From contig JAFXIJ010000010.1 in NCBI GenBank assembly GCA_017533175.1, positions 9,678-73,677 of the forward strand: 64,000 nt of DNA. The letters are read 5' to 3'. Shown here piece by piece: positions 8,782-64,000 of this stretch. Origin of the DNA: Clostridia bacterium (GTDB lineage Bacteria > Bacillota > Clostridia > Oscillospirales > Acutalibacteraceae). Both the position numbers and the translations under genes were made by a program. Under the pieces are notes generated by a model. That model saw nothing but the letters and a program-made list of their open reading frames with translations, had not been told where the DNA came from and ran no database searches. How positions within the stretch are numbered: position 1 is the stretch's first letter; every line of letters starts with the position of its first letter.

Positions 8782-9693
8782 ATGAAACTATTTCAAAAGC
8801 AGTCTAACTTGATAAGAAATCGTAACCGTTGGGGATATGTATTTTGTGCACACTGGATACTTGGATTAGCTATGTTCTTTGTTGTCCCCACCGTAACCTC
8901 AATCTACTATGTCTTTTCTAATATTAATGTTGGTCAGGGAATGAAGACAACCTGGGTAGGCCTTGAAAATCTCCACTATATCTTTAATTCGGATAAGAAC
9001 TTTGTCAACAATATGGCAGCGTCACTATCCTATCTGGTGACCTCTTTGCCCATTATCCTTTCACTTAGTATGGTTTTGGCACTTATCCTTAACAGCAAGT
9101 TTCGAGGAAGGGTTGTTTTCCGTGCAATATTCTTCTTGCCGGTAATTATTACAGGCTCGGTTGTTATGATGCTAATGACAAATAACGCTGTTAACGCACC
9201 TATTTTTTCAGCAGCTTCCGGCGGTGGAGAATCTACTTATACCGAAGGTGCAATAAACTTCCAAGAAATTTTAGTAAACCTAGATTTACCCGCACAAATA
9301 AGGACGCTGATAGCGGGCTATCTGGCAAAGGTTTTCAATCTTATATGGAGTTGCGGTATTCAAACCATTCTTTTCTTAGCAGGACTTCAAAGTATTACTG
9401 CACAGCTTTATGAGGTTGCTAAGATTGAAGGAGCTAACCGCTGGGAAACCTTCTGGTTTATAGAAGTTCCGATGCTGAGAAATATCATTATGTTGGTTCT
9501 TCTCTATACAATGATAGATTTAGTAACCGAGCGTTCGACGCCGCTTATGACTCAGGTGTCAAATCTTATGTATAAGCAGATGATATACGACAGAAGCTCT
9601 GCTATGCTCTGGATTTATTTCCTTTGTGCAGGAGCAATTATGGGATTAATTCTGTTTTTATATAACAGACTCTGCATTAAGAAATGGGAGTGA
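8782..9693 (+). CDS. Carbohydrate ABC transporter permease (MalF type), importer 2
   Basis: 303 aa, multi-TM, with EAA motif YEVAKIEGANRWETFWFIEVPML. Confidence 0.85.
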   Translation: MKLFQKQSNLIRNRNRWGYVFCAHWILGLAMFFVVPTVTSIYYVFSNINVGQGMKTTWVGLENLHYIFNSDKNFVNNMAASLSYLVTSLPIILSLSMVLALILNSKFRGRVVFRAIFFLPVIITGSVVMMLMTNNAVNAPIFSAASGGGESTYTEGAINFQEILVNLDLPAQIRTLIAGYLAKVFNLIWSCGIQTILFLAGLQSITAQLYEVAKIEGANRWETFWFIEVPMLRNIIMLVLLYTMIDLVTERSTPLMTQVSNLMYKQMIYDRSSAMLWIYFLCAGAIMGLILFLYNRLCIKKWE

Positions 9694-62101: not shown

Positions 62102-63295
62102 TTATTCGGTTGTGTAGTTATCAAAATAACCTTGAATGAATACTATCGGAGTACCTTTGTCACCTGAGCCCGAGGTCAAATCGCACAGAGAACCGATAAG
62201 GTCGGTAAGTCTTCTAGGCGTAGTACCCTCAGAAGCCATCTGACCGTAAAGGTCGCTGTCCTTTTCTTGAATCTTGCTCTTTATGGCTTTTTTAAGCTCC
62301 TCACCAGACAGAGCAGAGAAATCATTATCAGCAAGGTATTTAAGTTTAAGCTCGTTGGGAGTGCCTTCAAGTCCCGCAGTATAGGCTGGGGAAACAACCG
62401 GGTCAGCAAGCTCCCAAATTTTACCTACGGGGTCCTTAAATGCACCGTCACCGTAAACCATAACCTCAATGTTCTTGCCGGTTGCATCATAAAGCTTCTT
62501 CTGAATAGCATCTACTATCGGCTGACAATCACGGGGGAAGAGCTTAACCTTGTCCTCGGTTGCCTTGTTTGAGCCTAAAAGGCCGTAATCCGCATTGAAA
62601 CCACTATCATTAATAGGTGCGTTCAGAATCTCATCAAGACCTAAAACAATCTCACCGCCTGCGGCTTTAAGAATACGCTTTGTACGTGCTCTTGTATGAA
62701 TATCACAGCAAAGCACATTTTTTGTGTAGTTTAAAATAGCCTTTGGATTGTTTGCAAATATTATTTCGCATTCAGCACCGCTTTCACGAATCAGTGACTC
62801 ATAATATTCAACATAGTCAATTCCCGTAAAGGTGTGCTTTTCATAACCAAAAAGCTCACGATATTTTTCAAGAGTTAAAATGTCTTTGTAGGGGTCAACA
62901 CCCTTGTCATCTATTGCATCTAACGTGATAAGATGGTTGCCAACCTCATCTGACGGATAGGAAAGCATCAAAACTATCTTTTTAGCTCCCTTTGCAATAC
63001 CGCGAAGACAAATAGCAAAGCGGTTACGGCTCAAAATAGGGAATATAACACCAACAGTGTTACCGCCGAATTTTGTTTTAACATCCAGAGCAATATCATC
63101 TACGGTTGCATAGTTACCCTGTGCCCTTGCAACAATAGCCTCGGTCATAGCAACTATATCTCTGTCGTTAAATGTAAAGCCTGCATCCTTTGATGCATCA
63201 AGAACAGAGGAGGTTACAACCTCTACTATATCATCTCCGGCTTTGATAATGGGTGCTCTTACACCTCGTGAAACTGTGCCTATCGCACGACTCAT
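62102..63295 (-). CDS. CofE-like (F420-0:gamma-glutamyl ligase family) protein
   Basis: 397 aa from ATG 63295, with GGAG 9 nt upstream. The N-terminus IGTVSRGVRAPIIKAGDDIVEVV and the overall length resemble Clostridial proteins annotated as F420 ligase homologues (memory-based). Confidence 0.5.
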   Translation of the reverse strand: MSRAIGTVSRGVRAPIIKAGDDIVEVVTSSVLDASKDAGFTFNDRDIVAMTEAIVARAQGNYATVDDIALDVKTKFGGNTVGVIFPILSRNRFAICLRGIAKGAKKIVLMLSYPSDEVGNHLITLDAIDDKGVDPYKDILTLEKYRELFGYEKHTFTGIDYVEYYESLIRESGAECEIIFANNPKAILNYTKNVLCCDIHTRARTKRILKAAGGEIVLGLDEILNAPINDSGFNADYGLLGSNKATEDKVKLFPRDCQPIVDAIQKKLYDATGKNIEVMVYGDGAFKDPVGKIWELADPVVSPAYTAGLEGTPNELKLKYLADNDFSALSGEELKKAIKSKIQEKDSDLYGQMASEGTTPRRLTDLIGSLCDLTSGSGDKGTPIVFIQGYFDNYTTE

Positions 63296-63509
63296 ACAGA
63301 ACAACTCCTTTATAAATAGGGCAAAGCATTTAATCTACCCTTTAACACAGAATAGATTATATCACTATAACATTAAGTTTTCAATATTTTTTCTTAAAAA
63401 ATATATAATTTTATAAATAACAAAATTTTTCTAATATTATTTGAAGAAATTAATAAAAAACTCTTTATTTTTTTCAAAAAGTGTGGTTTAATATAATATA
63501 AGAAAATTT

Positions 63510-63586
63510 GGAGGCATAGCTCAGTTGGTTAGAGTACTTGCTTGACATGCAAGGGGTCACCGGTTCAAGTCCAGTTGTCTCCACCA
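63510..63586 (+). tRNA. tRNA-Val (anticodon GAC), CCA encoded
   Basis: Manual cloverleaf: acceptor GGAGGCA/TGTCTCC, D arm GCTC-AGTTGGTTA-GAGT, and anticodon stem CTTGC/GCAAG with loop TTGACAT. The T arm is ACCGG-TTCAAGT-CCAGT with one C-A mismatch. Discriminator A plus CCA. Confidence 0.9.
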
Positions 63587-63624
63587 GAAAAAGAAAGACA
63601 CGCAGTAGCGTGTCTTTCTTTTTC
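63587..63624 (+). terminator. Terminator immediately after tRNA-Val
   Basis: GAAAAAGAAAGACACGC-agta-GCGTGTCTTTCTTTTTC. Confidence 0.85.
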
Positions 63625-63628
63625 AACT

Positions 63629-63792
63629 AAATCCGTCCTTACGGACGGGTGAAATCCTCACTTTGTTCGGGTGAAATCACTTCGTGATGAAATCCGACTC
63701 CGTCGGGTTAGGGGACGGATTTAATTTCATCTGCGCAGCAGATTTCATCCGAGCAACGCTTGGATTTCATCGTGCATTAGCACGATTTCATT
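63629..63792 (+). repeat. Array of seven mini-hairpins with ATC...G(A/G)T closing pairs, in two inverted blocks (GAA-linked, then TTC-linked)
   Basis: Hairpins are H1 63631-63650, H2 63654-63672 (degenerate), H3 63676-63688, H4 63692-63708, H5 63729-63743, H6 63747-63765 and H7 63769-63786. The linkers are exactly GAA (63651, 63673, 63689) or TTC (63726, 63744, 63766, 63787). See findings. Confidence 0.8.
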
Positions 63793-63797
63793 AAACC

Positions 63798-63826
63798 TTG
63801 CGGCTTTGCCGCTTTTATGCTATAAT
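63798..63826 (+). promoter_or_regulatory. Sigma-A promoter of the window-end gene
   Basis: TTGCGG-17 nt-TATAAT, with TGc extended -10. The spacer contains hairpin GCGGC-ttt-GCCGC. Confidence 0.55.
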
Positions 63827-63848: not shown

Positions 63849-64000
63849 ATGAAAAAAATCAGCCAAGGCAAATATGAGCTTTTTACCACAAAAGCGGATG
63901 CGATAGATAAGTTTATGCAATTGCAAGGTATTTGTAGAGAAGAAATTAGCGGTGAAAAGCCTATTGATTTTTACTGCACTAAAAAAGGCAAAATTATCAT
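63849..64000 (+). CDS. Hypothetical protein, 3'-truncated by window end
   Basis: The ATG lies 23 nt downstream of a consensus promoter and the frame stays open to the window end (MKKISQGKYELFTTKADAIDKFMQLQGICREEISGEKPIDFYCTKKGKII...). The RBS is weak (AAAGGTCGGTGA). Confidence 0.45.
   Translation, partial: MKKISQGKYELFTTKADAIDKFMQLQGICREEISGEKPIDFYCTKKGKII

Follow-up and report, generated by a model that had tools for sequence, protein, structure and literature searches.

The question raised by the 3' end of the tRNA-Val gene in contig JAFXIJ010000010.1 of a Clostridia bacterium (Acutalibacteraceae; assembly GCA_017533175.1) is what kind of element stands there, and whether it acts as DNA or as RNA. 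The DNA analysed, called the window throughout, is a stretch of 64,000 nucleotides (contig positions 9,678 to 73,677, forward strand); close to its end, a dense array of small hairpins in two mutually inverted blocks stands directly behind the terminator of the tRNA. A first-pass annotation, made from the letters of the sequence, had described these hairpins and had recognised no known element in them. They are the already catalogued Gut-1 motif (Rfam RF01706), present as a back-to-back inverted doublet, and the comparisons reported here suggest that the array is one copy of a composite repeat of ~200-240 nt of gut Clostridia with Gut-1 as its core. Our preferred reading, a tentative one, is that it is an interspersed palindromic element acting through single-strand structure, resembling the repetitive extragenic palindromes (REPs), bacterial interspersed mosaic elements (BIMEs) and REP doublets forming hairpins (REPINs).

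Identity of the array

At gathering level, the Rfam scan of the window gave two matches, a tRNA and Gut-1. The Gut-1 match covers 63624-63698 on the plus strand with 57.7 bits, against a gathering score of 50, and its cmscan alignment spans model positions 1-77, with three hairpins joined by (G)UGAAAU linkers. A sensitive local search adds a second match on the minus strand, 63719-63793, with 45.7 bits and an E-value of 8e-8, which falls under the gathering score. Since RF01706 is matched on both strands, the array consists of two convergent Gut-1 copies; the reverse-complement orientation noted earlier for the right block is that of the minus-strand match. In six related loci both halves reach the gathering score, again in convergent orientation.

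Gut-1 was described by Weinberg et al., 2010 (Genome Biol 11:R31; PMC2864571) from 43 representatives, all in human-gut metagenomes, and was published as restricted to the human gut and present in no sequenced organism. It was rated "RNA: Y" on covariation and as neither cis-regulatory nor a riboswitch, with no function proposed (PMC2864571); its Rfam type is "Gene; sRNA". The searchable literature, queried by motif name, accession and heptamer, yielded nothing on Gut-1 after the 2010 paper and no expression evidence. As catalogued, then, the units would act as structured non-coding RNA. Transcription reading through the tRNA-Val terminator could yield them within a 3' trailer or 3' untranslated region (UTR) of the upstream gene, or there could be two convergent transcripts; the single-stranded GAA or GUGAAAU linkers would then be available to an RNA-binding protein, or to the complementary AUUUCAC linkers that another copy carries. 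We consider this unlikely; the published covariation rating speaks for it, while the silence of the follow-up literature on expression speaks against.

The window array shares with the published motif its three successive short hairpins, its (G)UGAAAU linkers, its covarying stems and its gut Firmicutes-type sequence. It differs in that the 77-nt Rfam model has no terminator hairpin, fourth hairpin, centre, long-range helix or inverted partner, and in that its own linkers are of the GATGAAATC type, with the first one degenerate and the minus-strand copy sub-threshold. Loci laid out like the window array are already found in the Weinberg seed alignment, where a tRNA end or a stop codon leads into a terminator, the left block, the centre and then the inverted block; their linker is GUGAUAU/AUAUCAC in place of GUGAAAU/AUUUCAC. 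Several of the seeds are spaced 240 nt apart on a single contig (BAAZ01000130.1), and in Clostridiales bacterium CCNA10 (locus L301, 774-1788) Gut-1-type linker clusters recur every ~204 nt; these spacings suggest that whole modules can be amplified in tandem.

Anatomy of the array

The tRNA-Val(GAC) gene (63510-63586, plus strand; found by ARAGORN and matched by the Rfam tRNA model with 61.9 bits) ends in a CCA that abuts the array. Straight after it an A run opens a terminator-like hairpin, T1 or H0 (63588-63623, plus strand; read from the sequence), of the form AAAGAAAGACACGC-agta-GCGTGTCTTTCTTT, with a 14-bp stem at 63590-63621 and a T run behind it. This hairpin also drives two matches to Leu_leader ("Leucine operon leader"), at 63590-63730 and 63529-63621, with scores of 36.8 and 31.2 bits where 50 are required; these were set aside as spurious, as were the other sub-threshold Rfam matches that it produces in the region.

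The left unit, on the plus strand, starts with a degenerate first linker, CAACTAAAT, followed by H1 (63631-63650; ATCCGTCC-ttac-GGACGGGT), H2 (63654-63672), which is degenerate with pairs limited to ATCC/GGGT, and H3 (63676-63688; ATCAC-ttc-GTGAT). A fourth plus-strand hairpin, H4 (63692-63708; ATCCGAC-tcc-GTCGGGT), also belongs to the left unit and lies outside the Rfam model. The left linker heptamers, on the same strand, are GTGAAAT at 63649 and 63671 and ATGAAAT at 63687. The centre (63709-63728, plus strand) is made up of a modified linker TAGG, the segment GGACGGATTT at 63713-63722, and AATTTC. In the right unit, on the minus strand, H5 (63729-63743; ATCTGC-gca-GCAGAT), H6 (63747-63765; loop aac) and H7 (63769-63786; ATCGTGC-atta-GCACGAT) are joined by heptamers that read ATTTCAT on the plus strand, at 63724, 63742, 63764 and 63785. 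All told, six clear hairpins and one degenerate one lie across 63631-63786.

The strict hairpin grammar proposed in the first-pass annotation is borne out by a hairpin counter set to stems of at least 5 and loops of 3-4, which finds 7 hairpins in 173 nt against a mean of 2.0 and a maximum of 6 in 1000 shuffles, and by the heptamer linkers: of the 4 copies of GATGAAATC in the 64 kb, where 0.65 would be expected, 3 fall within the array. Folded as a single strand, the array gives z-scores of -9.1 (plus-strand RNA), -7.2 (minus-strand RNA) and -8.0 (plus-strand DNA), matched by none of 200 shuffles.

The polar module and its long-range helix

Twenty full modules, that of the window included, have been aligned end to end (alignment A1). 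In these 20 loci the module consists of a terminator hairpin, four sense hairpins, a centre and three antisense hairpins. It begins with CCA, an A run, T1, a T run ending in CA, linker 1 and H1 (arms a and a'); continues with H2, H3 and H4, each preceded by a linker, then the modified linker and a second copy of a', called a''; and ends with ATTTCA(C/T), H5, linker, H6, linker, H7, a last linker and an A-rich tail. A hairpin of the T1 type stands directly before the first linker in 18 of the 20, and a fourth hairpin at the H4 position is found in all of them.

In the window the central GGACGGATTT is a second copy of the H1 3' arm, and its partner is AAATCCGTCC (63629-63638); this is the alternative pairing pointed out in the first-pass annotation. 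The alignment gives this pairing general form -- linker 1 and arm a, taken together, are reverse-complementary to a'' with the linker behind it -- and the resulting helix, P0, covaries strongly. Its columns are 98.2% paired across the 20 modules, and in 7 of its 11 pairs both partners vary, a figure reached by 0 of 500 shuffles; when the partner columns are slid, pairing falls to 38-64%, and RNAalifold, unaided, prefers P0 over H1. In 9 of the 20 modules the terminal pair of P0 is G-U on the tRNA-sense strand, a point in favor of an RNA. Within the local stems 34 of 37 pairs show double changes, so the earlier impression of structure kept over sequence holds. The module is polar with respect to its surroundings: among exact P0 matches the H1 side often points toward a tRNA 3' end, and the far side toward gene starts or ends.

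The seven local hairpins are present as first described, though they do not make up the minimum-energy fold. Because the left and right linkers are complementary, that fold joins the two blocks; H1 and H7 remain local and the rest of the left block pairs with the right block via the linkers, at -76.3 kcal/mol, where the best local-only fold (pair span limited to 32 nt) reaches -58.3. In all 20 modules the unconstrained fold beats the local-only one, by 8-18 kcal/mol. The "ladder of four-way junctions" that this describes is a thermodynamic prediction only: in a manual reading of the alignment, register-specific covariation between left and right linkers was looked for and rejected, as G/A content correlates with C/T content module by module and not position by position.

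Units across gut Clostridia

A scan with a four-linker pattern, one genome per species, gave at least 120 loci. The four-linker form was needed: on viral contigs, looser three-linker patterns produced listed matches of which ~97% were tandem-repeat noise. With such noise removed from the four-linker scan, the matches listed, to which the family counts given below apply, comprise 126 clean units in 91 loci, 103 of the units with four linkers; other copies in related genomes do therefore exist. The carriers, mostly Oscillospiraceae, Acutalibacteraceae, Christensenellaceae, Ruminiclostridium and unclassified Clostridia, come from human, ruminant and other guts; three or four loci were listed for several assemblies, and there are also records other than metagenome-assembled genomes, such as Acutalibacteraceae bacterium SVS042. 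These rumen, other-gut and non-metagenomic matches make the description of Gut-1 as confined to the human gut and to no sequenced organism outdated.

Units occur alone or as convergent pairs, of which there are 28, with gaps of 12-13 or 25-33 nt at the centre and a few longer ones; a single apparent divergent pair is in fact two tandem modules. In two loci convergent units lie far apart, by 488 nt in L255 (1617-2248) and 365 nt in L320 (793-1271) against the usual ~30 nt, and the L255 spacer contains a ~20-nt tandem repeat (ttatcgctactttcttctgcg...) and no open reading frame (ORF). After the last hairpin of solo units a modified linker is conserved, as GTTGTGG(T/A)A, GTTAAGGAA or GTGAAGGT; its window equivalent is GTTAGGGGA at 63707-63715. 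Together with an extra hairpin it forms a 3' extension of solo units outside the Rfam model, seen for example in L327 (4022-4060), L332 (4538-4570), L292 (3483-3500) and L252/L319.

The four wobbles in the window's stems are all T-G or G-T on the plus strand, from which the first-pass annotation had argued for a single plus-strand molecule. That argument fails in the family. Of 1962 stem pairs in the listed units 1915 are Watson-Crick, with 12 G-U pairs (0.6%) against 22 A-C, and such scarcity of G-U also weighs against an RNA. The sole recurrent wobble is the U-G closing pair made by the linker, and it suits each block on its own strand, not one common strand. Read on the top strand, the closing pair is T-G 47 times and T-A 14 times in the left half and C-A 41 times in the right; the wobble forms on the top strand in the left half and on the bottom strand in the right half, so that the two halves look like the same object on opposite strands. 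A single transcript of the whole array would put A-C mismatches at 41 of 57 right-half closing pairs. On the other side of the account, the base preceding TGAAAT is a purine without exception (G 42, A 26 in units where the pattern leaves it unconstrained), so that only the sense strand has U-G or U-A as its closing pair, a point for the RNA reading.

The loops are strand-asymmetric as well. In the GTGAAAT sense they read TTC 112 times, TGC 65, TTT 31 and TAC 15, while the complementary GAA, GCA and AAA are found 4 times each and GTA never. On the ATTTCAC strand these loops read C-GNA-G, and C-GNA-G is a very stable type of DNA mini-hairpin.

Linkers follow one another at 16-24 nt, and their heptamer differs by locus: GATGAAATC in the window, TATTCAT in L231, TCTTCAC in L230 and GUGAUAU in Weinberg seeds. 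Within each locus, despite these differences, the heptamer agrees between both blocks. In L231 (135-300) five contiguous heptads TATTCAC/TATTCAT without hairpins, and in L230 (2075-2200) four of TCTTCAC/TTTTCAC, are followed by a copy of the terminator 3' arm and then by inverted heptads, a hairpin-less variant of the grammar; the two runs occupy the position that the array has in the window, and both loci encode relatives of the small protein encoded downstream of the window array.

Such heptads raise the possibility of an array bound as duplex DNA, that is, an iteron, operator or centromere-like site of the kind of the omega-type ribbon-helix-helix heptads or ParR/parC. The heptad consensus of omega (pSM19035) is WATCACW. 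A linker variant among the Weinberg seeds, TATCAC(A/T), resembles it; the window heptamers are first direct and then inverted and lie beside a putative promoter (63798-63826), and the contiguous hairpin-less heptads of L230 and L231 would suit such a protein. We nevertheless regard duplex binding as very improbable. With a spacing of 16-24 nt the heptamers are neither contiguous nor phased on B-DNA, their sequence varies between closely related loci, stem covariation is not needed for binding to a duplex, most copies are away from promoters, and no candidate binding-protein gene recurs nearby.

Genomic niche and dispersal

Five copies located behind different tRNA genes have been aligned separately (alignment A2). 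They are near-identical from CCA-GAAAAA to ~50 nt past the last linker, over ~240 nt, while the tRNAs and outer flanks are unrelated; two of the five share one assembly (SVKB01). The T1 stem varies among them with compensation, so T1 behaves like another hairpin of the repeat.

The link with tRNA 3' ends that was proposed for the window holds family-wide. Where a tRNA gene lies upstream of a unit, it is on the same strand in 18 cases and on the opposite strand in 1, with 13 tRNA types represented; where an ORF lies upstream in the orientation of the unit, its 3' end faces the unit 35 times and its 5' end 22 times. Clusters of tRNA genes and one rRNA operon also have modules at their ends. That orientation tracks the upstream transcription unit in this way is a further argument for an RNA, as are the solo units that stand between a stop codon and an intrinsic terminator. 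The arrangement of terminators points the other way. In 18 of the 20 modules, that of the window included, a strong intrinsic terminator ends 0-2 nt short of the first linker, which leaves no space for a promoter; on the far side an inward-facing terminator follows within 150 nt in 8 of the 20; and no promoter for the right unit is consistently placed across the modules. With terminators placed in this way, many copies would sit in untranscribed gaps.

The same association with tRNA 3' ends, together with the precise junction at the CCA, might indicate a recombination scar or attachment (att) region, either a cluster of integrase arm sites or a cargo-less miniature inverted-repeat element. The outer ends of the array are inverted repeats (TTTTTCAATGAAAT ... 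ATTTCATTAAAAA), the window locus lies at a synteny breakpoint, and two related loci part at the module centre (L137 and L168, described below). An origin of this kind is still improbable. The tRNA-Val 3' end is not duplicated anywhere in the 64-kb window, which disposes of the earlier suggestion that the array is the att region of an element targeting tRNA-Val; 13 tRNA types and many protein-coding genes serve as neighbours across the family; what follows downstream in relatives is housekeeping (the small ORF, then uvrB); and no target-site duplication, integrase gene or transposase gene turned up in the flanks examined.

Nor does the element appear to travel with a gene of its own. No protein family recurs in the 8-kb flanks of the family loci, and no ORF lies between the units of any pair, so that a REPtron-like arrangement, with units flanking a gene, was rejected. 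BLAST of one module against plasmid and phage collections gave no match. A phage origin was likewise dismissed: the few "viral" matches, from IMG/VR, are the host flanks of prophages beside half tRNA-Asn att sites, outside the phage itself.

In two of these IMG/VR contigs, L137 and L168, a tRNA-Asn 3' half is followed by T1 and the module, as at a prophage junction. The two (L137 9700-9900, L168 250-520) have the tRNA-Asn 3' half, the terminator and the left unit in common and diverge completely right behind the fourth hairpin, the right unit being present in L168 and absent from L137, which suggests rearrangement or recombination at the module centre. In L234 (100-310) a 198-bp insertion separates tRNA-Asn from the terminator and module; a 13-bp direct repeat of the tRNA-Asn 3' end (GTTGGGGGAGCCA) flanks this insertion, which looks like the scar of an integrative element. 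In L338 (344-412) a match to group II intron domain V/VI (RF00029, 47.5 bits) is located ~120 nt ahead of the terminator hairpin in front of a Gut-1 module.

Affinities with known repeats and proposed mode of action

Three hypotheses had been offered for the window array at the outset -- a REP/BIME-like element, a small structured RNA, and a remnant or att region -- and it is the first that the evidence favors. Like REPs, BIMEs and REPINs, the units are short, imperfectly palindromic and marked by a conserved motif at the hairpin foot. They are scattered between genes where transcription units end, some of them single, others in inverted doublets or tandem clusters; a doublet is able to fold back into one long hairpin, and transcription is expected only inside a 3' UTR. 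The perfect palindromes, the mirrored strand asymmetry and the terminator-sealed sites suit a DNA repeat of this type better than a small RNA gene. The differences are also clear. There is no sequence similarity, the foot being (G/A)TGAAAT here instead of GTAG; a unit has 3-4 unlike hairpins and not one conserved palindrome; a terminator hairpin and a preference for tRNA operon ends are built in; and the classical elements belong to Proteobacteria with REP-associated tyrosine transposases (RAYTs), whereas these belong to Clostridia with no RAYT in the flanks searched.

Other structured repeats are more distant. BOX elements of Streptococcus pneumoniae and Correia elements of Neisseria, which bring terminator or promoter functions with them, are likewise modular structured repeats between transcription units with a variable number of internal modules, but their module sequences are conserved, where only linkers and grammar are conserved here, and Correia elements have terminal inverted repeats with target duplications. 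Integron attC sites resemble the array in keeping structure over sequence, in strand-specific folds of single-stranded DNA, in their position at gene 3' ends and in a GTTRRR-like word after the last hairpin (GTTAGGG in the window; GTTGTGG and GTTAAGG elsewhere). What sets the array apart is the absence of R''/L''-L'/R' sites, of extrahelical bases, of an integron integrase and of a cassette array; repeated heptamers, in turn, are foreign to attC sites. The resemblances to attC, parS/NBS and CodY boxes were dropped, their defining features being missing. A type III toxin-antitoxin array of the ToxI type was discarded in turn, since such arrays are near-identical tandem repeats with an endoribonuclease toxin gene behind them, while here all stems differ and no conserved gene was found downstream.

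If the REP-like reading is right, each unit would fold on its own strand and the two halves could fold back together, the active form being presumably single-stranded. The repeat would be copied and kept at the DNA level, and template switching at quasi-palindromes would keep its stems perfect. It would settle at sites that tolerate an insertion or profit from it, namely the 3' ends of highly transcribed units, tRNA and rRNA operons above all. There, by analogy with known repeats, it most likely serves as a structural boundary, reinforcing the terminator and, when transcribed, blocking 3' exonucleases; the role might extend to the handling of supercoiling or recombination. It would encode no dedicated trans-acting RNA, and an RNA role would arise only where a copy happens to be transcribed.

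Several observations weigh against this reading. The boundary function is drawn by analogy, and the stems vary between the hairpins of one unit, unlike those of classical REPs. Some solo units (L280, L284, L312 and L277/L288) lie between a stop codon and an intrinsic terminator; such copies must be transcribed and may function as RNA. Strand-specific selection shows in the strong loop asymmetry and in the purine that opens every linker, and an RNA could explain it too. The 64 kb of the window contain one copy of the element. A tblastn search for an IS200-type TnpA in ~0.9 Mb of locus flanks, a weak test made with an approximate query, gave nothing below E = 4, so that the RAYT/IS200-type gene suggested in the first-pass annotation did not appear there. 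Finally, no orthologous site without the element was found among 80 relatives of the gene upstream of the tRNA, all of which miss the tRNA-Val junction.

A bolder form of the REP-like reading would make Gut-1, no longer a small RNA, the core of a new class of interspersed single-stranded-DNA element that functions much as REPINs do, a ~240-nt cassette copied by an enzyme to the 3' ends of tRNA and rRNA operons and genes. The cassette would comprise the terminator hairpin and both inverted arrays of hairpins and would fold back into a branched structure. We think this somewhat unlikely, though conceivable; such a class would shape termination, recombination breakpoints and genome architecture in gut Clostridia. 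The more modest REP-like reading, if correct, would mean that abundant gut bacteria own a class of extragenic palindromic repeats, with a bearing on annotation, on assembly breakpoints and on the hunt for the enzyme that spreads them. In any case Gut-1 is part of a larger polar cassette that is widespread in gut and rumen Clostridia and prefers tRNA and rRNA operon ends, and even should the REP-like reading prove wrong, the units collected here form a far better seed alignment.

Local context of the window copy

Upstream of the tRNA, on the minus strand, lies a gene for a 400-AA protein (62102-63304). Its 80 metagenomic relatives (L359-L438; 71-86% amino acid identity) have no tRNA-Val, module or small ORF nearby, and in the one relative checked, L361, an 865-AA ORF on the same strand precedes it; the junction between this gene and tRNA-Val (62102-63509) is a synteny breakpoint. 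The sole contig with the HAD-like neighbour protein is 5 kb long and stops before the tRNA.

The distal boundary of the array (63798-63826, plus strand) had been called a consensus promoter. Its extended -10, TGcTATAAT (63818-63826), is indeed perfect, though read from the sequence and unlisted by the promoter scan; the -35, TTGCGG, is poor (3/6) and is overlapped by a terminator-like hairpin listed by the scan, GCGGC-ttt-GCCGC followed by TTTT (63800-63816), which lies upstream of the -10. A stretch homologous to this promoter is found in L231. The -10 precedes a small plus-strand ORF (MKKISQGKYELF...) that starts at 63849 and runs to 64000, past the end of the window. Its only relatives are four proteins of 51-85 AA from metagenome assemblies, with no Pfam domain on record, and the small proteins of loci with different heptamers (the window, L231 and L230) are 73-80% identical. 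The upstream neighbour of the small ORF differs in every relative examined; in L232 the relative directly precedes uvrB.

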